A DNA stretch of 61,806 nt, the filler included, from Rhabdomonas costata (lineage: Eukaryota), in assembly GCA_019059605.1 (NCBI GenBank). It is 25 parts of 25 records of this genome, joined end to end, with 100 filler letters (N's around TTAATTAATTAA, not from the genome) between each part and the next. Parts side by side here need not be neighbours in the genome. Positions count along the whole stretch, not along the records: positions 4,959 to 7,337 come from JAHMHO010003712.1; 24 more parts are not named here. One strand, given 5' to 3'. The notes under the pieces are model-generated. The model had not been told where the DNA came from. It saw only the letters and a program-made list of their open reading frames with translations, and searched no databases. Position 1 is the stretch's first letter, and each line of letters opens with the position of its first letter. Both the position numbers and the translations under genes were made by a program. Shown here piece after piece: positions 5,110 through 61,114 of this stretch.

Positions 5110-7306
5110 CAGTCGTCCACCAACGGGCGGCAGGCGCGGCCCATCATCTGAAGCATGTCAGTGATGTGATAGTCTGCGTGGCGGTGCTCCCGGCCGTCGT
5201 AGTACTGGGTCCCCATGATGATCACACAGTGCGCAGTGGGCTCCACACCTGTGAAGGGGACACATACGGTCGTATCATAAAAACCTGGACTTTTTTTTTT
5301 CGGTATCATGAACCTGAACATTTTAATAATCTTCATATCTTTGAGATTTCAGGGGGGAGGGCTTCAGAATTACTCAAAGCCAATGTGCGGTGTCACCCGA
5401 GTCACCCGTGTCACACGAGAACCGCACATCAGTAAAGCAACGGAACCTTTCACAAGTCTTTGGACATCACGACTGACATTCGCTGCATCTGCGACAATTA
5501 CAGGAGTTAGCATAAGCAGGACATGCTCAACTGCAGGAAGCAAGATGGGAAGGGTCGCATGCCCCAGCAATGCTTGTAGCTGGTGATGAACACGTTCACC
5601 GCACTGCTCTCGAAGAGCTTGGAGGCGATGGTCTTCTCGCGGTCCGACAGACCCTCGTGGTAGAAAGCAATGCCGTGTTGCAGGGACCTCAGCAAAGCCT
5701 GCGTGATTTGATACCCACAAAGCGTAGGGTGCGGCAAGAGAATGCTCGCACTCGCATCACTGCTCCGACCACTTCAACTTTCCGCGACCACCCGCCAAAG
5801 TTCACGTTCCGACGAGGTGCAAGTCCTTCTGGAGGTCTTCTCCAAAACTAATTTCAAGCTCAAGCGGTCTACAGCTCGTAACACCCACCCCCAACAGTCC
5901 AACACTGACCATGAGAAAAAAAAAGGTCCCAAAAATAAATGGGAAGGAGAGAATGCCTCGTCTTTGATGTACGAAAGGTGCTCCTTGATTTCCGCCAGGG
6001 GCACCCTCAGGAACATCCGCCGGTTCTCTGCAGCTGTCAGGTGACCCACCAGCTCCACGGCCACGTCGTAGATGTACCGCTTCTCGGGCACAAAGATCAT
6101 CACGGGCTTGTCCGCGCTGTGCGCGCGGATAGCCATGAAGGCGGGCTTGTACATCGCCACCATCCGAGAGGTGAACCCGGGGTTGTCAAAACCCTAACCC
6201 CAACCCAGCAAAGCCATGAGTAATTGTGAGCCATTGTGAGACACAACCTTTTTCCGCGGGAACGGCGAAGAATAGACCACAATGGAAAAGGATCCAGTTG
6301 TTTTACGGGGCTTCAAATCAACACCGATACTTTCTGAACACATCCAAGTCGAACTCGAATCATGGAAGAGCTTCACTTTTTCTGTTTTGGTTGGAAAATG
6401 ATACTGAACACGGAAAAGCACCGGAATTGTTAGCAGAGGCATTGCTACGAAACGATCAATTCCGCGCTCATCTGCGGTCATTCATTGTCAGACGACGTCG
6501 ACATCCGCCACGGTAACATCAGATCTATTATGTGGCACAAAAGGCATTATGAAAAGCAAGGCTTTTATAGCGGAGCAAAAAAGCCGTTGCCAAAACCTGA
6601 ATGTGAATCTCCAACGGCACTGGCCTCACCGTGGGGTGGAAGTTGAAGATCGAGGTGTGAGAGGCTCCCACCCACTCTCCAAGATCCTTTGCATTGGCCA
6701 AGGAGCTGCTGGCCGCGACAAGACGGATCCTTGTCCCAAAGCGCTCGACCATCTGCGAGCTGATGTACCTCATCCGGGACACGATCACCTCCACCACAGG
6801 CCCCCGTGGGCCCACGATGAGATGCAGCTCGTCTACAACGAAGAGCTTCACACTCGTGACGTTCTTTCGCTGCTTCCACCTGCGGGATTGTGGTGGGTGC
6901 ATGTCCCTGCTAAAGGACGTCCTTTGACCACAGGGACCTGCGCTCAGTTTCCAGCTCCCTTGATCTACGAGGTTACTAAACACAGGCAGAGCACACAGTT
7001 AAAAAAAAAAGCTGGATAAATAGGTCGAAAACGAAAGGTGCGATTCCAAGAACCGCTACCATTTTCAACCATTACCGGAGCTCACCGTTATCTCCCCTCC
7101 ATGCAGAGTTGGCTTGAGCCAAACCCAAAGCGGCTTTGCCAGTTGAGGGGTAACGATACCGTCTGGAGATGACATCCCAGTGCTCAGGGGTGCTGATAAT
7201 AATCTCGCCCTTTTCCAGCAGCTTGAGGTCCGCGCTGGTCTCACCAGTGAGCTGCACCACGGTTCGGCCAAGGCGGTCATCAAACTTGCTCTTCCACTCG
7301 CGGTAC
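5110..7306 (-). CDS. BRR2: U5 snRNP 200-kDa RNA helicase Brr2, C-terminal helicase cassette (partial, 5 exons)
   Basis: Exons 7306-7160, 6879-6597, 6193-5957, 5698-5563 and 5248-5110 splice in frame. Peptides include [112 protein letters not shown] and [34 protein letters not shown], all typical of Brr2/SNRNP200. Two introns are GT-AG and two are GC-AG. Confidence 0.96.
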
Positions 7307-7444
7307 CTACCGCAGACATGAGGACAACCAAAACCCCNNNNNNNNNNNNNNNNNNNNNNNNNNNNNNNNNNNNNNNNNNNNTTAATTAATTAANNNNNNN
7401 NNNNNNNNNNNNNNNNNNNNNNNNNNNNNNNNNNNNNGTTTTTG

Positions 7445-9916: not shown

Positions 9917-10778
9917 GGTGGGGGGGTGGCGACCGGGCTGGAGGGTTTTTCGCTCCTGGTTTCTCCACATGGCGGCAGGGCCGCGGGACTCGGTGGACAA
10001 CTGTCTGGCTATTCCACAGCGTTGGATTTCTCAACTTCTTTTTCCTCCCAGCAACCTTTACAGCCAGCCGAGCACGAGCAAAAGCCTGCACCACAACCGC
10101 GGCCCAGCCCAGCGGTGCCTTCCACTCCTCCAACCGCCGAGTTCGGAGTTGCCGCTCTATTTGGCGGCGGCATAGGAAACCCCGGACGACAGCCTGAATC
10201 GCCGCGCAACAGGTGCGTCGCCGAGGAAGGTCCACTGTGCGGACCAGGAGTCCACGCCACCACGCCTGCAGCCGAACGGCTGCGTGGGTGCGCTTTCTTT
10301 TCCGCTGCGCCCGCAGCAGCGCCTGCTGCCGTGCTTCAGCCAGCCTCTGAGCCTCCTCGGCTTCCTGCTGTGCTCGCGCGTGCCTCTTCTCAAGCATCAG
10401 CTTGCGCTCGCGGAGATAAAGCTTGGCCGCAACCTCTTTGTGGAACTCATTCCGCTGCTGCAAAGCAGCTCGACGGATTAGCTTGTGCTGCACCCTTTGC
10501 CTTGTGCTCAGTAAATCACCCTCGACCTCATCCCACGCTGAGTGCACCACTGCGGATTGAGGGCGGTGTCGGACTGGCCCCGTGGATGGGGGACGAGGGC
10601 TGAGGCCTGCTTCTGGCGTGGAGGACTGAGGCCCAGAACTGTAAAATTCCCGGGAAAAGGCTCCCTTGCGGGCCAATGAAGGGGGAGGAACAGGAGTTGC
10701 GGGAAAACTTGCTGCCGCTACAGGCAAAGGAAGTGCTGTGCTCGGTAGCGTTGCCTGCGTACTACCAATACGATTCAT
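9917..10778 (-). CDS. IQ (calmodulin-binding) motif protein with coiled coil; long single exon, 3' end cut by the contig
   Basis: Open frame from ATG 10778 (MNRIGSTQ...) to the contig edge. It has a Pro/Ser-rich N-terminus, a charged coiled coil and three IQ-like motifs: AAVRLQAWWRGLLVR, CAAIQAVVRGFLCRR and AAVVVQAFARARLAVK. Confidence 0.8.
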
Positions 10779-12997
10779 TGTGAAACATGGAAACACAGAG
10801 TGCAGGTTGCATCTGTAAATCCTCGTTGTGGAGGCAAATGCGTCTTTCTGATCCGGGGTCCGGGAAGTGTCAGCGAAGCCCGTGCCTAAAAAGCAAACGA
10901 GTACAATGGGCACCAACAGGGAAAGTGATCAAATAGGGTCTTCACGTTCCAAATCGAAACATATCAAAACGTCGTCAAGTAGAAGTCCAAAGCAATGCAC
11001 CACACCTTCTCGCGCTGCTCGTGTCGTGGAGGGGGCAATGGCTGACGCAGACCACGGGCGGGGAGTTGCCCCAGCTAGCCTCGCGGCCGTCTGAAAAAAC
11101 TCCGCAGCAGAGTCCGCATCCCCTGAGCAGGTACAGGCCCCTTACTCGCAACTTACTCGCACCTCCCAACACACAGGCTATTAGCCTCGGGAGGGGAAGA
11201 CCTTCTCAGTCTCTATTCACTCACCTTTACATCTGGTCTGGGGGGAAGCGTGATGGGCTTAAATATGGTAATTTAAGAGTTTTGTTACATTCTAATTCCT
11301 GTACAAGAACCGGGGCGTTTTTTGCAGCTTGCAAATAAAACAATTTATGGTTCAAACCTTGCCGCGGACACCGTTTCTTGTGGTAAAATACATGAAAGGC
11401 CAGCAAGCTAGGTCAAGGAAAACCCATAAACGGGGGCAACCTACGAACACCCATGAACCCACAAACATAAGGCTAGCTCCACCGGGAAACTGAGAGATAA
11501 ATCTGAAACTTTCGGAACAGAAAATCTTTTTACCGTATTTTTATGCCGCTGGTCTCAAAATTGCACTGTACGTGGAGATGAGCAAACAACATAGTTGATG
11601 GTTCGGCCTCGAGGCAAAATGCGGCAAGTGTGGTTTGAAGTAAACCTCCGGTCCATTCAGACTTTTAGGTGCACAGTAAAAAAGCAAAGTTCGGGCGTAA
11701 TGAACAGTGTTTTCGAAGGTGACATAAGTGTGTTTCAGGTGCACGGGGAGTTCCTTCAACCCCAAACATCAGGCAACACAGTGACTTACCTGATTTTGGA
11801 CCGCTCAGCCATAGAACGCATCCTCCAACTGCTCTGACAAAAGTCTCAGTTTATGGTGGAGCCTCCTATGCTTATATTGCTTATGAACTTTATGAACCAC
11901 GCAACACACATGCCCACTAGTTCAGATGCGCAGAAATTGTTGTGGAAACGGAAGGAGACCTTGAACTCCCTCCAAGCACCCCAAGGCATTCATGATCGAC
12001 ACGCGGAGCGAATTCCTGCGAGGGGTTCCCAGGCACGATGGCATCCGAAGAGTCTCCAGAACCGCGAGAGTCTGCGGAGAGGACGTCGTTCGGAGCGATA
12101 ACTGTGCAGAAGGGAAAGGTAAGCTGAAATCAGCGGAAATAAAGCAACAGAAAAGATGCAATAGCCATCAAATGCAACTGTCATTTGGACGACCAGCCTG
12201 TTACACACGAGTGTATCTTCGAGTGTATCTCATTTCTTTGCGAGAAAAATAGAGCATCGCACCCCCCTTTCAGACGCGCGCCCTTACAAAAAAACNNNNN
12301 NNNNNNNNNNNNNNNNNNNNNNNNNNNNNNNNNNNNNNNTTAATTAATTAANNNNNNNNNNNNNNNNNNNNNNNNNNNNNNNNNNNNNNNNNNNNTGTTG
12401 TTGGTGCTCGTGTTTAAGCCCATGTTCCTGAACTCGTTGCATCGCTACCCATCTGGGCAACTGCAGATCTTGCCACGGGAATTTTGGACAATCACACACA
12501 TGGGAATTGACATGAACATGGGCTTAAACACGAGCACCAACAAGTGAGTGCTCAAACCTTTGCGGGAGGCAGCTTTCACTACCCCGAATTCTGCGCCCGC
12601 TTCTTGCCCGAATGCACAACGTAAGTAGACGGCAGACAAAGGGAAACCGCTCGGAAAACAAGCACATGTACAAAATGCTGGACGTCAGATGTGATGAGGC
12701 GCTAACTTCGTCAGCGTTTGAGCACTTTTTTTTGGGAAGGAAGTTTTGAAGCACTCAGCCTCCTTAAATTCGGAGATGATCCCACAGTCTTATGCCCATC
12801 TTCTGCACCAGGCACGGGTTCAGTACTTGCGGAAGAAGTCTGAACGTTTGAAATTTCATGACGGCCACCTGGGCTTTCACAGCGATTCCGCTTCAACCTG
12901 CCCAGGGGCCCCTTTGCCGGAGCACATCCACTCTTCTTGTAGTGGACAAAAAGGACAGTAGGCCTCCCACGAGACTTGTTTCCCGCTTGACAAAAGG

Positions 12998-14106
12998 TCA
13001 GTATCCCTGGCAGAGCAGGTCATAGTGGGGCACGCGTGAGGAGTCGAAGGGGCACCGCGCCATGGGCTTGCCTCGCAGGGCCGCACGGTAGATCACCTCC
13101 ACGAGGTCTGTCACCCACCCGGCCACGCATGACTGCATATCAGGTGCAAAGAGTGAGAGATACAAGGCATCAGAGCACACTATGGAGCTGTAAGCTCCGC
13201 AGACAGGCACAACACAGAGAGTTCAAACTTATGTGCTTATGATTTGTATATAAACAAAAAACATGTACGCTGTCCAAATTACCCAAAACAAAAGAACAAC
13301 AGAAGAGAGGACTCATAACAACGCACCATGCCCTCTGCCCAACCTCTACTCATGCTTCAGTCCTTGACAAGAAAACAACCTCATCAAGGCAAGGGAATGG
13401 AATGAAAGAAAGGGTGTATGTGCAGTATAGCAAAGGACGGTGGCGAAATGGAAGAGGGGAGCAGGCAGAGCGAGTGAATTGGCACGGATGGGAGAAGCTC
13501 TACAGGCGATGTCAGTAGAAAAAGAAAAGCCCACCGATAAAGTCCTGCTTCCTCACAAAGCACCCCACCCATTTGGTGTGGTCCAGGGTGCCATAGTCCA
13601 CCTTCATGTGCACAGTGTTGAAGAAGAATACAATGCAGGGAACCAAGGTAATCCCGAAGTAGCGTACGTACGTTGGAACTTCCGAGCACTCCACGATATA
13701 AACCCGGCCAAGCTTCGAGACCAGGTGCTGTGTCTTGGCCAGGACCTTGTCTGTGGTGAGAAGTGAGTGAGAAGTGAATGAGCAGTGAGGGCGGGGGGCA
13801 GCAAAGTTCACGGCAGAAGGTCACCTTCACGAGAAGGTGAAACCCCAAAAGTCAAAAATCCACCACCAACCCCTCTCTCCTTTTCCCGAGCTTCGGAAAC
13901 CTGCACGGAGAAGCCTTTTCGAACCCACCCAAAAGCCAAACCATGCACTCACCACCCAAAGACTCACACATACCCAGGGCCATCGTCTCAGGGTGGTCTT
14001 CGGAACCAAACCGCAGCGCTACTACCAGATCATCATTGTTTTGCAGTGCGTCATCCACCTCGGCCTTGGTGCGCAGTCGATGCAGGTCGGGGTAAAGAGA
14101 GGTCAT
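12998..14106 (-). CDS. TXNL4B: Thioredoxin-like protein 4B (DIM2), complete, 3 exons
   Basis: Exons 14106-13974, 13750-13535 and 13107-12998 (both introns GT-AG) give MTSLYPDLHRLRTKAEVDDALQ...VVALRFG...[67 protein letters not shown]. The HMKVDYG/DHTK/KQDFID/PxYDLL motifs are DIM2-type, not DIM1-type (HIMIDLGTGNNNKINW). Confidence 0.93.
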
Positions 14107-21780: not shown

Positions 21781-22125
21781 CTGACGAACGCATAATTTTG
21801 CCCGCGCCAACTTATAAGCGAGAGTTTTGAGATGCGTTATTGCCTTACGGTTAAATAGAAAAATCACGCAACCTTTCTTTGGAAAGGTTACTCTCCATTT
21901 CGCCATAGCAAAGCCAAGGGAAAGGACTTTGGTAACAGCAGTACCACAGCTGTGTCCATCGCGATCCCTTCTAATTTTACTAACCGATATTTTCGACCTT
22001 TTTCAGTTCAGGTACAAAAGGCCTCTGTGTGTCTCATAATGCCGACAACAATACTGTTTCTTCTGCAATGCTTGACCATACTGCCTTCTCCCTCCCTCCC
22101 AGCAAATCACCAGTGCGGAGTCCAA

Positions 22126-22203
22126 CAATACAATACAATACAATACAATACAATACAATACAATACAATACAATACAATACAATACAATACAATACAACA
22201 CAA
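22126..22203 (+). repeat. (CAATA)n pentanucleotide microsatellite
   Basis: About 15 tandem CAATA units running to the contig end. Confidence 0.97.
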
Positions 22204-22677: not shown

Positions 22678-24427
22678 TTAGCGTTCCTGAAACATCAGGA
22701 GGCGGGAGAAGGTGGGGATATTCCAGAGGTCGCCCAGCATCATGGGCAGCCGAACCGCCTTGCGCCGCAGCCGCTCAATGTTGCGGCTGTCATCGTCAAA
22801 CGTGACGAAGGTGTTCTCGGAGTGGCCCACCTGTAGGGCGGCCGCAAGAAGGGAGCGGAGGTGCGGGGGAATATGCGTGATTCATCCGGCCATTCGGTGC
22901 GGCGGAGTGAGAGGATGAGTTGCTTTGAAATACGTTGTCGGGTGCTATCGCAAACGCTCCTGCTCCGCATCGCCAGCATGGCGCATGCTTTGATGACTGG
23001 TCAGCGTCGGCTTGGCTCTCATCTGTGAGTCTGAGTGAGTCTGCTTCGGCTCCCTCCCCCCCCATACTCTGTATTTTCGTGTGGGTCCAGGGCTCCTTTT
23101 CACCAGCAGAAGGACCAGTTACCTTCCCATCTTACTTTTCGCACCTAACGTTACTTCCCCTTCCCCTCCCTTTTCGTCTTTGTGTTCCGGACCTTTGATC
23201 TAGCTTCGTGTGCAAAACACCCAGCCTGCTGGTGTAAACCAAAACTCTTTTGTTCTTCCCTCCGAAATTGGTCTTGCGTGGAATGTCTGTGGCACCCATT
23301 GAGGCAAAAGGGAGACGAAAGAGCCGCCAAGCGACACCACAACCCGCCGGAAGTGAAAGGTCAGAAAACCCCTGACCCCAAGGACCGACCGATCGACCAC
23401 GCAAAATTTCGGGAGGCCTTCTGCACATACCCGAGAGACTACCCTGCTTCGGCCAAGCCCTCCGTATATAAAAAGCCGCTGTGATCTATTGCTTCGTAAT
23501 TCCGGTCGCACACTTCTTATTCCTGAACTTGGCGAGCCACATTTTTATTGGGAATCCCTTAGCACCAATGGTTACACTCCGGCAAACCTCTTGAAGGCCG
23601 TGGGCAAAGTGCATGCAGGACTGCCAGCGCTTGCCCACAATATCCACGCATGTGGCCCCAGCGAACATCCCCGCTGCCCAGATCACCTGTAGTGTGGTGT
23701 GGGGTGGTGTGTTGTGATGTGACAATGTCAAGGCGGACAGCGGGGAAAATATGCACAGCAAAATTATAAGTGGGAGGGAAAACGCAGCGGTTTGAAACTT
23801 GGTATGGGCCACTCAGCCTGAAACGATAGTACGATGTGATGAGTTGTCAGTAATGCATCGAATTTCACAATGAAAGAAAAATATTGTTCACAAAAAGCCT
23901 GTTCAACGAGCAATGCACAAGTGGGACCCTAGAGTGGAAAAATGGCCTTTTGAAGACAAAACATAATTACCAAAAAGAATCTGACTGGCATGTTTCCCGG
24001 AAAAGAAAGTCAAGTCATGCACAGCTTTTCGATGCCGTAGTGTTCACCAGCGTAAGTGAGTGATAGGATAATAAGGGTGAACAAATACGAATACAAATCT
24101 ACGAATACCCCGAATGATCCCCTTCTACCGGAGTAACGCCACTTTCTCAGGCATCACTTTCTCCACAAACCCCCCTCCCTCATGCCTTGGTGGTGCGGCG
24201 CACAAGCTTCACCCAGGTGTGGAGCAAAGCGCAGTAGTACATCACTGTGAAGCCGTCACCCAGCAGCACGGTGTTGCCGTGGACCATATCGAAGGGCGCA
24301 CGTTCGTGGGTGCGTTCTCGCAGGGCATAGATCTTCCATGCCGTCAGCAGGGCCCTGTGCAATGTGTGGCGCATGTGCATCTCAGCGCGTCCTCGGGCCC
24401 ACAGTCCTTCTGGCTTGTAGGCCGTTT
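22678..24427 (-). CDS. Hypothetical protein C-terminus (3 exons), with weak Sfi1-like Trp repeats
   Basis: Phase-compatible exons 24427-24186 (GC donor), 23686-23588 and 22830-22678 (stop TAA), with GC3-rich coding-like codons. AEMHMRHTLHRALLTAWK fits A-x7-L-x4-L-x2-WK. Confidence 0.65.
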
Positions 24428-35042: not shown

Positions 35043-37063
35043 GTCCGGAACATCGTGAACCTGCTGCTCCGGGGCCGGTTCAAGCCGGAGCACAGCATGT
35101 GTCACCCAAGGTCTCTTCCCGTATTCCAGCACCCCAATCACTTATTGTAGAACGGTGGAGAGCTACGGTCCGTGTGCCCACTGCAAGCCACAGGCTGACT
35201 GCCTTTCCTTTCCCGTGGTCGAGGAGATTTGGGTCATATAATGTCATCAATGTCAACGACCACTAACGGTTACCATTTCTAGCAGTTACTACTGCTAACG
35301 GTCACCATTGCTAACGATGACCATTGCTAACGTTTACGTCTGCTTGAGGTTACCAATGCTAACTACAACTGCTAACCGTCACCACTGCCAACGGTTTCCC
35401 CTGCTAACGGTTACAATTGCTAACGGTTATGACCCACACCCACCCACCCGGCGTCAATTGGGCCCCGGCCCCACTAACTGGATGATCTGTGGATGGGTAT
35501 CCTTGATTGGGAGGGGGGGGGTCTCAGCTGGAGGGACTGCACGTTGTTCCCGGACGAGTGCCTGAAGATTGACGTGGCAGTGTTCGTGTACGCCTACGGC
35601 AGCGTGTTTCCGCACCGCCTGGCGACCGCTCTGGCCGAGGAGTGCTCCCGCCGCGCGGTGAGCGTGCTGCCCGTGATCACGTTCTACGACCAAGTCCGTC
35701 ATGACGACCAGGCAACCGCCCCCAATCAATCTGTCCCTCATTCAGTTCCCTCAACTCAAATTCGGTGCCCCTTTGCAACCTGTGCAATTGCTTCGATGTG
35801 GCCTTTGCTCTCGAGTTTCCTCTCAAACGCGTGCGCGGTTATGTGGTGGCACCCTCTGTATCACGGAACAAGGTAGTACTCTTCAGGCTTTCTGTGACAA
35901 AAGAGCAAACTGATTGCAACTCGAAAACTATATATAAAAACCTTCATGGCTCTATGGTGGTGGTGGGGAATCGGGTGCCCTGGGGGATGGGGTTCTTCGG
36001 TTTGGATGCCAGTGCAACTCTGAGAATGGACGTAGTGCAGGATGTCTCAGAGTGCGATGGATGGGGATGCATGGTTGCAATGCCCGTGCCGCCTGATAAA
36101 GGAGAGTTGGAAAAGTGGTACCAAAAAGCCACCATTCGGACTTCGGACTGGAGGTTTGGGGTTTGGGGTTTGGGGATAGGAAAAAATGTTTATCATCCAA
36201 AACCATGTCAGCATAGTTGCTTCTTTTGGATTCAAAATAAAAAAACATCTTTAGCTGACCTTTTTCTGCAATGAACCGATGATTTCTAGAGTTGCTGGAG
36301 ACTTTAGCTTTATTTTATTGTTTCTCACTGGGCAATGGCCATATCAGGATGCCATTGTTCTCTCACCCTTCACTACCGCACTCTTCCATCGACTCCAAGC
36401 CAAGCCAAGCTCCATCTGAATTGGGGCTTTCGCTTGAATGATCTGGAATCCTCCTCACCCACTCAGCTGAATGTGCACCTGGACTGCTGCGCGAGGATCT
36501 TCAACACCCACCCGATCTTCCTGACCAACCTCTGCGCGCTACCCCCCGCCGCGGAGGAATCTCCGCAGCAGCAGTCCGCCGTGGGGAAATCCAAAAAGGT
36601 GTGACACACCCACCCCCACCCCCACTCCCACCACCACAAGCACCTCCTGCGCACGCAAAAAAAATCAGCTGTTGACACGCTTCCGATACGGTCCGGCTGT
36701 GGATGTGGTTCCGGTACGGCGCATCTCGGAAGGTTAAGACTTGAGGGTCAGTGGTACTGCCGGGTTGACCCTTCACTGTTGATGTTCAAGGCCAGAGGCC
36801 TGCATTAATAGATGAGTGCTGCTGAAAGTTCTCCCAGAGCGACAAAAGATGAGCTCATTTTAACAGTAAAAGCCTGTCTGAATGCCCCTCGTGAATCTTA
36901 ACCTACTAGTGTGTTCAGGTGTCTGTTATTTCTGACGGTCTGCGGATGGGCGGCTAGTTTTTCAGCACTTCCACTCGCACAGGCGGTGCTGGACTTGGCC
37001 TCGCAACTGATGCTGTACGGGCAGCAGCACCACCGCTACCGCAAAGTCGACACCACCCCCCCC
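35043..37063 (+). CDS. IFI44-like P-loop GTPase-fold protein, C-terminal half (4 exons)
   Basis: Exons 35043-35110, 35528-35711, 36467-36598 and 36983-edge give VRNIVNLLLRGRFKPEHSMCHPSWRDCTLFPDECLKIDVAVFVY...AEECSRRAVSVLPVITFYDQV...LDCCARIFNTHPIFLTNL...AVLDLASQLMLYGQQH. The motif order resembles the IFI44 GTPase domain C-terminal half (recalled, not searched). Confidence 0.6.
35263..35430 (+). repeat. Degenerate minisatellite with a ~16-bp unit (GCTAACGGTTACCATT-like), inside an intron
   Basis: About 10 diverged copies, e.g. ctaacggttaccatt, gctaacggtcaccatt, gctaacgatgaccatt, gctaacggttacaatt. Confidence 0.85.
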
Positions 37064-43333: not shown

Positions 43334-44489
43334 TCAGCAAGGCCATCTCCGCCAGCCTGGGACGCTCTTCATTGAGTTCTTGATACTGTGGGGACTTGAC
43401 ATCGACTTTTCGGGTTCTACGGGTGAGATGTGTGCGAGGCGCAGGGTGACGAGGTGATGGGTGAATAGGGGGGGAATTGTGAAGGAGGGGATGAGGGAGA
43501 GCAAAGCAGAGATGCCTGAGCAGGATCGACGGATGTGGAGGACGTCTGAGCCGCTTGGGCTCTTCCCAAACAGCTCTGTTGCAATACACACATGAGCAAC
43601 ACAGAACAACGATTCAATGAGAGAGACGGGCGAGACACGGGAGGGAGAGTGACGAGCGCGCACATCCACTTCTCAATCAAACAATGCAAGCACTTTTCGC
43701 TTCCGTGTCATTTGAGTTTTGGGGGGGTCTCCATCCCGTGCGTTGTGTCATAGGTATTCCTTTGATGCATTTTCACATGGCCCCCTGCACGCATCATTGC
43801 GTGCATTCTTTCACTTCTTGGGTTGAGTTGCTTACCTCAGGCAGTATACAGTATAGCCTCCACCAGAATCTCGTGCACGCGGTGTGTTCAGATGTGGGTG
43901 GACTTGGTCCCAACAGCTGTGGTGCTACGAACGCTGCTGCAAGGAGTTCTGCGAATCGTTTCGGTTATGATCACGACTACTGTGGCTTGTATCCATGCCT
44001 CCAAGTCTGATGAATGGCAATACAATCACAAACTGTATTCCTCCGCCTCACATCCCTCCTGTTTACATCATAGATATATCCTTCCCAGGGGTAGCGAGAA
44101 GGCATTCACAAAATGGCCGCTGTTATGGCAGCCGTTTGTTTTATAATTAGTGGAAGAATCGCCGATGGCTTGCAATCCCTTGAAGTCCCGCCGAGGCGAA
44201 GTAAAAATAACAAATGTGCCCGGTGCTCCCTTTGTCCCGCCAAGTTTGTCCCTTGGTTTAAGCGATATGTCGTAACAAGTCCGACACTCGACCAGTGGAT
44301 CAGAAGTTGAGTTAATGTCTCCTCGCGTCAACCGCCACCGGAGAGCGCACACGTACACACCCATGGGGTGCTGACCCCCTCCGCCTCCCCCGGTGGTAGC
44401 CGTAGTGGCGGTGTGGGTGTTGAAGTACGGCGAGAATTGCCGCAGGAACGCCGCGGAGTCCGCGCACCAGCACACCACCCCCAACACCC
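43334..44489 (-). CDS. Hypothetical protein C-terminus (3 exons)
   Basis: Phase-1-compatible exons edge-44361, 43575-43516 (GC donor) and 43416-43334 give ...ADSAAFLRQFSPYFNTHTATTATTGGGGGGQHPMELFGKSPSGSDVLHIRRSCSEPEKSMSSPHSIKNSMKSVPGWRRWPC*. Confidence 0.5.
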
Positions 44490-45358: not shown

Positions 45359-46965
45359 CCCCCGGTGCATGCCAGGCGGACGCTCAGACCAAGCTTCTGC
45401 GTGGCCTGCAGCAGCTCCTGCGCCGCAGTGACGCACCTCATGGCGTGGTCCGAGCGGGTGTTACGAACGTTCCAGAAGGCCAGCACCTTGTCCCCGGCGA
45501 AGGGCATGGAGAGCCCCCCGTTGGTATGAATAACCTGTGGAGCAGCGCCAAAACAGGCAGGCTGATGCTGACGATGGGCAGGGCTTGCACATTAACCGTA
45601 AACAAAACAACATACCATAAAAAAAGGCAAGCAAAAAAAAGTCAAACTGAGCCTCTTATCTTATCCTGCAAACCAAAGGCAAAATTGAAGCCAGAGGCAC
45701 AGGTCCAGCCCCCAGACAACTCACCAAAATGGTTTTTGTTTGAGCTTGGAGCTCACAAATCCACCCACCAAAACAGGTCAATCAAAGCTGCCTTCGCCAC
45801 CACTACCTAAGGATCGCTCTTTGGATATAGAAAAAGATGAGATAAGACATACGACATAAGCAGAGCCTCTTACGTGAAGGTATTAATGATGGATCAATCT
45901 TCCTGGGTATCCGATTTCCGTCAAATTTTTTGTGCTTCGGTTTGTTCGTGCTGTCGCGTTGCTGTCTTTGGAACCGTGTGGACCTATGTTGCAGCAGCAG
46001 CAGTGACGTGATGTTTTGCTTTGAAAAAAAATTGATGTTCAATGGATCCATTGTTTGATAATCCATTTTTCCCTTCTTCCAATGACGGAAGGGACTGGAC
46101 TGGAGAAGCCTCTCCTTGATTCATATTTGGCTGGCCCATTATTTTTCTTCACCAAAAAATCCGTTGTTATCTATCATTAATCCAATCCATTATTAATACC
46201 TTTACGGTATCTAACGGTACCTGGATGGTTGTCTGAATTACCGCAGAGTGAGTGGAGATCAGAGTGGCCTCGTCCTGAAAAAGGTTGTGGAAGCCCGAGA
46301 TGTCCATCTGCAGCGCAGACACTATGCGGTGGGTCAGAATCCCGACCTGTCGAAGGACGGTTGAGCCCCTGCGCCCAGAAAGAAGGTATGCCACCTTCGG
46401 CGAAGGGCACTCATCGCCCACGCCATGGCTGCGGTGAGTGCGACGTGCCGTGAAGTCCAGGCCGGAACCCACCGAGTCACGGCTAGAGCCCAGTGCGGGC
46501 GCCACACGGGTGCGGTTGCTGCACGGGCTGCCCCTCGGGCTGCTCGGTGGGTCAGGCTCAGGCCTCTCCTCAGTGGAGCCCAGCACTGCCTCGGGGAGGT
46601 AGGCTCGGAATTCCTTTGGATTGGGCACGTGTGGGCAACCACAACGAAAACGGCAAAGGGGGAGGAAGTGTTTGTTTGGCTGATCATAGCGCCGAAAGCC
46701 CAGCTAATAGCATGGGAGGGTCTATTGGCCACTGCCTGTGATAGAGGGTATCACCATTACGGCTGGCTCCAAAACTCCATCTGGGTCCTGCAAGGGTTCA
46801 TTTGAAATGCCAAATTGTCATGACCACAAATACAGCCGAAAACAGTTTGGACACTTCCACTACTACCATTGCCTGAGAGGGAAAAGCAGATGAATACCAT
46901 AAGCTTGTCCACCATCGTCCCAAAGAAGGCCTGAATGTCCGCGATCGCCGGGAAGGGGCGGCGCC
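45359..46965 (-). CDS. Class III adenylate/guanylate cyclase-like protein (HAMP-linker-cyclase type), partial
   Basis: Exon edge-46898 encodes IADIQAFFGTMVDKLM. Exon 46613-46221 encodes EFRAYLPEAVL...VSALQMDISGF. Exon 45534-45359 encodes NGGLSMPFAGDKVLAFWN...DHAMRCVTAA...VRLACTGG. The two metal-binding Asp motifs, DISGF and GD, are present. Confidence 0.85.
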
Positions 46966-58788: not shown

Positions 58789-59846
58789 GTGAGTTTTGCA
58801 TGTCTGTGTGTGTTGCCGTGAGGCCCCGGGAAAAGGCATCGAGGGAAGAGACGGTGAGATGCTACCCATTGGGAATCCAACCCATTCAAAAAGAACAGCT
58901 TCCGTCGCACGCCACTTCACTCTCTTGCTGAAGTGAGTCGGGGAGGGGAATCTGCGGTGCCGCCCAGCTTTTCCACCCTCTAACCCGTCACCGCCCGCAA
59001 AATCATTCACTAACTCCCTGTAACATCCTTTGTTCTTCACAGGAGGAGCCCAGCCCCGCACTTCCATCCCTTACCTGGGTTGTTGTCCAGCATTTCCTGT
59101 GCCCCACCGCACTGTGTGATAAAGTAAAGAGGTCCACCATGGAAACCACTCCACTGGCGTGAAGGATCGGAATGGCACCTCTAGTGATTGGCTCTTTTCT
59201 TGCAGAGCTGCATGTACTCAGTGCAGGCTTACATCCCCCTCAGTGCTCAATGGCGTCCCCTCCACCTCACTGCTACCCGTCCATTCCGCTATGTTTTCTC
59301 ACATTTTGGCAGTACTCGGACGCAGATGCGANNNNNNNNNNNNNNNNNNNNNNNNNNNNNNNNNNNNNNNNNNNNTTAATTAATTAANNNNNNNNNNNNN
59401 NNNNNNNNNNNNNNNNNNNNNNNNNNNNNNNGTGGGTTGGGCTCTGGGAAACACTGGGAAAAAGGCCTTTCACCCCCACCACTCCACCTTAGCAAGCTAC
59501 CCTGGTTAAGCGGGATGACGAACACATCATCCACATCATCCACATCATCCCCCAACTTGCGTTTACACATATGGATTGACCTTAGTCCGACAGAGAGCTG
59601 ACTTCAAATCTTCACTTTCTTTGTTGCCAACTAGTCATCTGCGCAAAGCGATGCACTCTTTCAAATTTAGCGAAAAACAGAGAAAAAAGTAAAACTTTTA
59701 AAGAAATGGGACATCTGTTCCTGCTTTCCTTCGGTGCGTAGTCTCACATGCTTCCTGATTAGATGTCAAAAGTCTCACTGCTGATGTGAAGCGGACCATA
59801 TTCCATATTAACAGCAAAGGTACAAAAAAAAGGGTGTGGGAATCAC

Positions 59847-61114
59847 GACTGAACCAGGCCTTCAGGCAGTGTTTGTGGAAGATGTGCCCACAGGAGAGCT
59901 TCTTGGCACTGTCGGTCATCTCGTCATAGCAGATGATGCACTTCGGGTCACGACGTATTTCTTCGGCGGTCGCATCAGGATATCTACACGTGAAACACAG
60001 GAATCTCCCACCTTTCCTTAAAAGGAAATTAAGCATATCACCATCTGCCTCAGAGAGAGCTTCGTCCCCCCTCCCTCCCATTTAGTATTCCTTGTTCACC
60101 TTTCGTCAAGGAAGGCCGTGAGCTTCCTGTACCTCAGGAAGTCACGCACCGCTTTGTGGAAGGATTTGACCGTGAGATACAACTCCCTCATCAGGTGCAG
60201 TGGAAACCCGTACAGCGACATTAGAATCCCGAAAAATCCCATATACAGCAGGCACTGCACAAGGTCCGTGGCAATTTCCAGGTAAAATCGGTACTTTCCT
60301 AGAAGAAACAGAGAAACCAGCACCCCAAAGTGTGCATTCACAATTTCCCTCGCACAAACTCCCAACACCCAAACAAAACCTTAAAACAATGGGAAGGAAA
60401 GGGAACGGGAAGGGAACGGGAAGGGAAGTGCACTAATTGTACTAAGATCCCATGGATGTAAAACTGACCAAGAAAAACAACTGAGGAGTAAATTCTTGAG
60501 TCACATGAAGTGCACTGAAGTGCACTGAAGTGCACTACAAAAAGAAAAGAAGGACGAGTAAAACGACAACCCTTGTTTTCCCAGCGGTGATGGCTTCGGG
60601 CATCAACCAAGTGCAACACGAACCTTGCTGTGGTAGTGGAAGACGTCACGGTCATAATGGGAAACTGAAGCGAGGGGGACACAGCATCGACAAAGGACAA
60701 GAGAGACCCACACGTACATTGTGCATTCCTGCCGAACTCGCACCTCGAGAGCCAAGAGAAGCCGCACGGAACTTCCGAAGGTAAGAAGATGAGCAATGTA
60801 CGTGGCAGACATCCACAGGTCGATGCAAAGAAGCAGAAGACAGAATAGAAAGAGTCTGGTTCCACTTGTCGCCATGTCTTGCTCCAGCTGAGAAGTGGGA
60901 AGGAGATGACCAACAACAACCTGCCGCTGAAATCAACACTTCGCAAAAATGCGCCCCATACATATTCTTCTCGACTCTGAGCAAGCCAGTGGAAAATCTT
61001 CACAAACAGGCAGATCACAAACATCGCCACAATAGTGGTGGTGATGTGCTCCCGGAAGATGGTGAGGGCGAGACACGTGGTGGCTACAAAGTAGAACGCG
61101 TTCTCGTGAAGCTT
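59847..61114 (-). CDS. HRD1: ERAD E3 ubiquitin ligase Hrd1/synoviolin (transmembrane region + RING-H2), partial
   Basis: Exons: 61114-60962 (TCLALTIFRE...LFVKIFHWLAQSREEY), 60887-60744, 60664-60571 (RWENK), 60298-60100 (GKYRFYLEIATD...GFPLHLMRELYLTVKSF...DFLRYRK) and 59983-~59847 (YPDATAEEI...CIICYDEM...AKKLSCGHIFHKHCLKAWF). All resolved introns are GT-AG. Confidence 0.95.

Follow-up and report, generated by a model that had tools for sequence, protein, structure and literature searches.

Abundant GC donors, that is, 5' splice sites at which the intron opens with GC, have already been published for dinoflagellates (PMC4083563, PMC7789003) and for the haptophyte Emiliania huxleyi (PMC4028052). 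In Symbiodinium, GC and GA donors are described beside GT, with GC nearly as frequent as GT and the acceptor AG often followed by G (PMC4083563). Table 1 of a comparative study gives the combined share of introns with GC or GA donors and AG acceptors as 25.3% in Fugacium, 51.8% in Breviolum, 74.0% in Symbiodinium microadriaticum and 0.7% in Perkinsus (PMC7789003), and Amphidinium carterae is described as having GT in most donors with some GC or GA (PMC12584245). For E. huxleyi, 56-65% of donors are reported as GC, nine of them confirmed by reverse transcription PCR (PMC4028052). The GC-AG introns of animals are described as making up for the C by a closer fit of the rest of the donor to the consensus (PMC2490688). 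Here we describe two consecutive GC-AG introns in the BRR2 gene of a 61,806-base stretch of DNA from Rhabdomonas costata (hereafter the window), which consists of 25 contigs of 2372-2379 bases with N-spacers between them. The GC content of the contigs ranges from 0.42 to 0.57 and is about 0.5 over the whole window; introns are abundant in its genes, with a median length of 276 bases, and exons are short.

The BRR2 segment lies on the minus strand of contig 3 (4959-7337) and encodes part of the second helicase cassette in five exons, with four complete introns and the donor of a fifth (Table 1). In intron 3 the GC donor is at 5956-5955 and the AG acceptor at 5700-5699, and in intron 4 the GC is at 5562-5561 and the AG at 5250-5249. 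The flanking exons, termed A, B and C, were searched singly against the Protein Data Bank. On Chaetomium Brr2 (6qv3_A), residues 4-79 of exon A align to 1116-1191, residues 1-45 of exon B to 1192-1236 and residues 3-44 of exon C to 1240-1281, and the glycine codon split by intron 4 corresponds to residue 1237. Human BRR2 (4f91_B) likewise keeps its register without a gap at both GC junctions, and in total three solved BRR2 structures and one further protein, P0152, align gap-free across both. P0152, found with the 45-residue exon B, is a 712-residue protein from a relative, named pre-mRNA-splicing helicase BRR2 by its source and 84% identical. It is encoded on a 2694-nt contig, a length that leaves its coding sequence essentially uninterrupted. 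Using tblastn, its residues 5-97, 98-176, 177-221 and 222-267 fall on four exons of the window, colinear and gap-free, and all five BRR2 exons are without frameshift at 72-87% identity to it.

If either boundary of a GC intron is shifted by one base, the ends become GG..CA or CA..GG, which makes GC-AG the sole reading with an AG acceptor. We also ran a splice-pair trial at each junction, combining GT, GC, GA and AT donors from -45 to +200 bases with AG (or AC) acceptors from -200 to +45 and scoring the products against P0152. For intron 3 the GC-AG pair ranked top of 140 in-frame, stop-free combinations with a score of 520, the best GT-AG pair reaching 493 and adding 17 residues. For intron 4 the GC-AG pair was top of 85 such combinations with 448, the best GT-AG pair scoring 414 and adding 24 residues. 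The GC content at third codon positions (GC3) of the 17-residue read-through in intron 3 is 0.29, versus 0.64-0.87 in the verified exons. The two GC donors, GCATTCTC and GCATGCGA, do not match the U12-type consensus RTATCCTY as given in PMC5032977. At the level of sequence evidence, these results establish both introns as GC-AG with exact boundaries. The original prediction, that two consecutive BRR2 introns need GC donors, is borne out at the same coordinates, and the sequence trial for nearby GT donors or non-GC boundaries came out in favour of the GC pairs.

How common such donors are was assessed in a census of the five loci with an anchorable exon structure (BRR2, DIM1-like, cullin, RBR ligase and HRD1), all homology-anchored conserved genes whose spliced translations are open and sensible. 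Among 14 complete introns and one further donor there are 13 GT, 2 GC and no GA donors, GC making up 13%. The acceptor is AG in 14 of 14 introns, the last exon base (exon -1) is G at 14 of the 15 donors, and the base following the acceptor AG is G in 8 of 14 introns, including all four in BRR2. A G after AG in about half of acceptors is usual in other eukaryotes too. At a rate of 1% the probability of two or more GC donors in 15 is 0.0096, so that GC-AG introns look commoner here than the roughly 1% of animals and plants, as had been proposed, though modestly. The tally is compatible with a share of 25% (P = 0.23) and unlikely at 52% (P = 0.0025), 60% (P = 0.0003) or 74% (P = 1.5e-6). The earlier estimate of five GC donors in about 40 agrees as a share, at 13% versus about 12% on small numbers; its denominator was not reproduced, the anchored donors numbering 15. 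On the remaining contigs, an ordinary G^GT (the caret marks the exon-intron boundary) is found near most of the other predicted exon ends.

Three more GC donors had been suggested on other contigs, and of these one appears plausible, one is ambiguous and one finds no support. We examined them with a codon log-odds score trained on 995 codons and 14 introns of the five anchored genes. At 35712 the 78 codons upstream score +47.2 (GC3 0.83) and the 54 open codons downstream -26.6; the exon would end here, since the coding score collapses though the frame stays open, and this together with the A or T at exon -1 of the nearest GT donors makes CAG^GCAACC a plausible donor. At 24185 the coding signal runs up to the site, with an in-frame TGA two codons later and GT donors 18 and 24 nt upstream, and the TGA may be the true stop codon. 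The proposed exon upstream of 43515 scores -10.4, its GC3 of 0.56 versus 0.52 at second codon positions shows no codon-position bias, and the Pfam scan gave no match in it.

Set beside the described systems, the window resembles Symbiodiniaceae-type dinoflagellates, as these are characterised in the cited accounts, in having GC donors well above 1%, a weak consensus beyond G^G and a G at exon -1, as well as AG acceptors (followed by G in all four BRR2 introns), intron-rich genes with short exons and a GC content of about 0.5. The median intron length, the scarcity of recognisable domains and the fragmented assembly would likewise fit a dinoflagellate, without making that placement more likely than not. 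The wording used for Amphidinium carterae (PMC12584245) comes closest to the 13:2:0 tally of GT, GC and GA found here. As reported for E. huxleyi (PMC4028052), GC donors appear routine and are paired with a canonical AG, presumably for an ordinary spliceosome, and predictors restricted to GT mis-model genes; unlike in that species, where GC donors are the majority (56-65%) in a genome of 65% GC, GT is the majority here at about 50% GC, and two or fewer GC donors in 15 would have a probability of 0.0003 at a 60% share. The two introns share their terminal dinucleotides, the A at +3, the G at exon -1 and a predicted exact in-frame excision with the U2-type GC-AG introns of animals and plants. 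They differ from these, which make up about 1% or less of introns, in lacking the flank compensation described for animals (PMC2490688), with 3 of 7 flanking matches, and in a frequency that looks roughly tenfold higher.

We consider it likely that introns 3 and 4 are genuine U2-type GC-AG introns of BRR2, in a genome with generally weak definition of its 5' splice sites. Near-invariant in the donors are the exon-final G and the intron-initial G, and position +2 is mostly T and C in about one of eight. One spliceosome would remove GC and GT introns alike, and we propose that C at +2 is tolerated because little more than G^G specifies the 5' splice site. Recognition would then probably proceed through the contrast in composition between exon and intron, the polypyrimidine/AG end and exon-bound factors; the eight BRR2 and DIM1-like exons have a GC3 of 0.64-0.87, versus an overall GC content of 0.45-0.53 in their six introns. 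Such a state may be lineage-wide, as in dinoflagellates and E. huxleyi, and not a gene-specific device, the GC donors seen here probably being ordinary for the lineage.

Several observations weigh against this reading. The sample is small, at 15 donors with a 95% interval for the GC share of about 2-40%, and the tally comes from conserved genes only. The coding score is circular for the five anchored genes, BRR2 included, and elsewhere rests on 995 codons, P0152 belongs to a relative of another species, and base-call errors or a T/C polymorphism at the two +2 positions keep a small probability. Intron 3 has an in-frame, stop-free GT-AG alternative (TCA^GTGTTG at 5905, adding 17 residues), which is disfavoured by homology and composition only. 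Unlike the published Symbiodiniaceae-type genomes, with 25-74% GC and GA donors in the table cited above, the window has no GA among 15 donors and 13% GC, and G follows the acceptor AG in only 8 of 14 introns. The dinoflagellate spliced leader had no match in the window at up to three mismatches; the Pfam scan of 450 of 565 open frames likewise gave no lineage marker, and the Rfam scan gave no matches.

A different account would make the GC donors a class of their own, defined by G^GCA(T) and read by a variant U1 (or U6/U5) small nuclear RNA (snRNA) or by a protein factor. Both verified GC donors do read G^GCAT, as does one of two unverified candidates, the other reading G^GCAA. The 13 GT donors have A at +3 in three cases and T at +4 in seven, and at these frequencies two GCAT donors in a row have a probability of about 0.015. 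However, the calculation was made post hoc on only two verified donors. Both GC donors in general and the universal consensus are described as having A at +3 (PMC2490688), and T at +4 is the commonest letter across all the donors here (9 of 15). One of the sites cited for the rule is without coding support and another is possibly a stop codon, and a variant U1 has no pointer in the window, where the Rfam scan gave no matches and no snRNA gene. We measured donor strength as the number of matches at the seven flanking positions of the U1-complementary sequence (A/C)AG^GT(A/G)AGT, as given in PMC2490688. Both GC donors match at 3 of 7 positions and the 13 GT donors at 2-5 (mean 3.46 of 7); mammalian-style compensation is thus absent, since the GC donors match this consensus no better than the GT donors. 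From +3 to +6 the top letter never exceeds 9 of 15, with A at +3 (5 of 15) and T at +4 (9 of 15) the commonest over all donors, and outside G^G every donor here is weak. The proposal of a dedicated or compensated rule tied to G^GCA(T) finds no support in these figures, with only two of its five sites verified, and the shared G^GCA(T) loses its special standing when 14 of the 15 donors have G at exon -1 and A at +3 and T at +4 are the commonest letters across the whole set. We therefore regard a dedicated rule as very unlikely. A broader conjecture, in which +2 was loosened independently outside dinoflagellates and haptophytes, with its own +3A/+4T signature through an altered U1 or U6 and a BRR2 pair that senses splicing capacity, would seem to have an equally slim chance.

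The two introns also carry no sign of a shared mobile origin. Introns 3 and 4 have no similarity beyond their first four bases, the best intron-to-intron match having E = 0.18, and both are single-copy in the window. Their end-to-end pairing energies of -8.3 and -9.2 kcal/mol are unremarkable within a range of -1.5 to -16.7 and no better than those of the GT introns. Being single-copy, unrelated and ordinary in their end pairing, they are not introner-like. The introns of the window thus differ from the introner-like or hairpin-bounded introns of Amoebophrya and euglenids, with no intron-to-intron match better than E = 0.18, unremarkable end pairing and AG in 14 of 14 acceptors.

Alternatively, nearby GT donors or other boundaries could be used, the protein carrying lineage-specific insertions and the GC-AG pairs being an artefact of seeking a gap-free match. 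In-frame, stop-free GT-AG pairs do exist: donor 5905 with acceptor 5699 (17 additional residues), and donors 5531 or 5522 with acceptor 5290 (24 to 27 additional residues). Against P0152, though, these alternatives score 27 and 34 units lower, and they insert residues that are absent from the three solved BRR2 structures, from ASCC3 and from P0152. The stretch inserted at intron 3 is unlike the verified exons in its GC3, and the GT alternatives have A or T at exon -1, versus G in 14 of 15 verified donors. We judge this account highly improbable. It is slightly less probable still that the true donors are GT and that the C at 5955 and at 5561 reflects a minor allele or a mistake in assembly or base calling. 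The strong fragmentation of the assembly, into contigs of about 2.37 kb, might seem to favour such errors, but two independent T-to-C changes would be needed exactly at +2 of consecutive introns within about 2.4 kb of clean coding sequence, whose five exons translate without frameshift as described above, and another plausible GC donor lies on a different contig. The least credible account, in which the consecutive weak GC donors form a regulatory device and BRR2 output is matched to splicing capacity through intron retention or poison splicing, could draw on the reported link of animal GC donors to regulated or alternative splicing (PMC2490688) and on the side-by-side position of both verified GC donors in one gene, but two GC donors among 15 fall on neighbouring introns of one gene with a chance of about 10/105, which is unremarkable, both GC introns read through into stop codons like ordinary introns, and no close genomic relative among 36 metagenome loci is at hand to show the GC state conserved. 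These loci, from a scan with P0152, are distant at 33-58% identity with the exception of one GC-rich, distant genomic fragment (L034), which reaches 69% in its best segment.

Two further searches were made with BRR2 exons. A library-wide search with the 94-residue exon gave 1887 proteins at E<=0.001, the best identity being 73% among fragments and 54% at full length. With the 79-residue exon A no homologue was found among proteins of 140-2000 residues, a size that full BRR2 exceeds. The donor of BRR2 intron 1, GTATCGTT (7154-7159, minus strand), is one base off the U12-type consensus RTATCCTY as given in PMC5032977. Inspected by eye, this intron has no branch-site-like element near its 3' end; a U12 assignment was set aside and the intron is probably U2-type.

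The remaining anchors of the census are listed in Table 1. The DIM1-like gene, of the thioredoxin-like U5 snRNP family, is complete at 12998-14106 (minus strand), with three exons and two GT-AG introns. Its product is 100% identical to P0151, a 152-residue same-species protein with the source label eukprot (a public protist proteome collection). An apparent GT...TG intron in this gene was ruled out, P0151 placing exon 3 further downstream at an ordinary AG. The cullin and HRD1 junctions are continuous in Pfam coordinates, the gap from 205 to 208 in the HRD1 profile corresponding to a split codon and one residue. The HRD1 donor after the RING-finger exon (59841-59850, minus strand) could be either of two GT sites that lie three bases from each other, and this donor near 59850 was excluded from the count; an exon for the last two RING zinc ligands was not found on the HRD1 contig. 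Intron 3 of HRD1 (60400-60545, minus strand) contains tandem direct repeats, a 10-base unit present three times and an 11-base C/T-rich unit about three times. An ACAAT (plus strand) microsatellite of 15.8 copies with 98% matches (22125-22203) lies at the contig 9 end, on the upstream side of the RBR ligase gene.

Table 1. Coordinates of the BRR2 segment, the further candidate GC donors and the loci used as anchors. The caret marks an exon-intron boundary.
Feature	Position	Strand	Support or status
BRR2 exon, runs off contig end, ends ...AGACG	7160..7337	-	frame open when joined to next exon
BRR2 intron 1, GT-AG, ACG^GTATCG...CCGCAG^G, 280 nt	6880..7159	-	spliced frame open
BRR2 exon, 94 full codons	6597..6879	-	tblastn, P0152 residues 5-97, 83.9% identity
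BRR2 intron 2, GT-AG, CAG^GTTTTG...GTTAG^G, 403 nt	6194..6596	-	flanked by P0152 residues 97 (to 6597) and 98 (from 6193)
BRR2 exon A, 79 codons, ends ...IKDE, GC3 0.85	5957..6193	-	6qv3_A 1116-1191; P0152 98-176
BRR2 intron 3, GC-AG, GACGAG^GCATTC...CACGCAG^GCTTTG, 258 nt	5699..5956	-	gap-free junction, 6qv3_A 1191/1192
BRR2 exon B, 45 codons + 1 base	5563..5698	-	6qv3_A 1192-1236; P0152 at 84%
BRR2 intron 4, GC-AG, TGGG^GCATGC...TCACAG^GTGTGG, 314 nt	5249..5562	-	junction W1236/G1237/V1238 on 6qv3_A
BRR2 exon C	5110..5248	-	Protein Data Bank matches, E 1e-17 to 5e-19; P0152 222-267 at 87%
BRR2 fifth-intron donor, CTG^GTCTGC	5109-5108	-	rest of intron runs to contig end
Candidate donor CAG^GCAACC	35712..35713	+	plausible, unverified
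Candidate donor AAG^GCATGA	24184..24185	-	ambiguous
Candidate donor CAG^GCATCT	43514..43515	-	unsupported
BRR2	contig 3		solved structures and P0152
DIM1-like	contig 6		152-residue P0151, 100% identity on three exons
Cullin C-terminus	contig 8		exon 2 = Pfam profile 8-42, exon 3 = 43-62
RBR ligase	contig 9		open, sensible spliced translation
HRD1	contig 25		exon 3 to profile position 205, exon 4 from 208

Of 565 open frames with 60 residues or more, the Pfam scan took in the 450 with at least 67, leaving the 115 shortest (60-66 residues); only 11 of the 450 had a match, and these represent seven loci. Many of the Pfam-negative frames have a strong third-position GC bias, for example 35478-35720 on the plus strand and 24186-24425 and 46221-46616 on the minus strand; the few Pfam matches together with this bias point to a large share of lineage-specific proteins. 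On contig 5 an unbroken 337-codon frame (9918-10928, minus strand) has a match to the IQ calmodulin-binding motif (E = 3.7e-7) as well as a stretch that is charged, resembles a coiled coil and has a strong coding signal; for an exon of an intron-rich genome the frame is unusually long. An open frame on contig 23 (55735-55950, minus strand) weakly resembles a domain of Ty3-type retrotransposons, the Tf2-1-like SH3 domain (E = 3.3e-4, below the Pfam cut-off); this contig is richer in AT (GC 0.42), and the frame is probably what remains of a decayed retroelement.

For work on this genome, the consequence is that a gene finder restricted to GT would split or falsely extend conserved genes, BRR2 among them, and annotation should allow GC donors and check for GA donors. 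The P0151 match means that a same-species protein set exists, which could anchor all genes of the assembly. Should a genome-wide, transcript-based count put the share of GC donors at about 10% or more, this would be one more genome in which the 5' splice site consists of little beyond G^G, and a high share would be informative about the recognition of weak donors by U1 and U6. The finding would gain in value if the organism lies outside the two lineages with documented relaxed donors, the dinoflagellates and Emiliania huxleyi.

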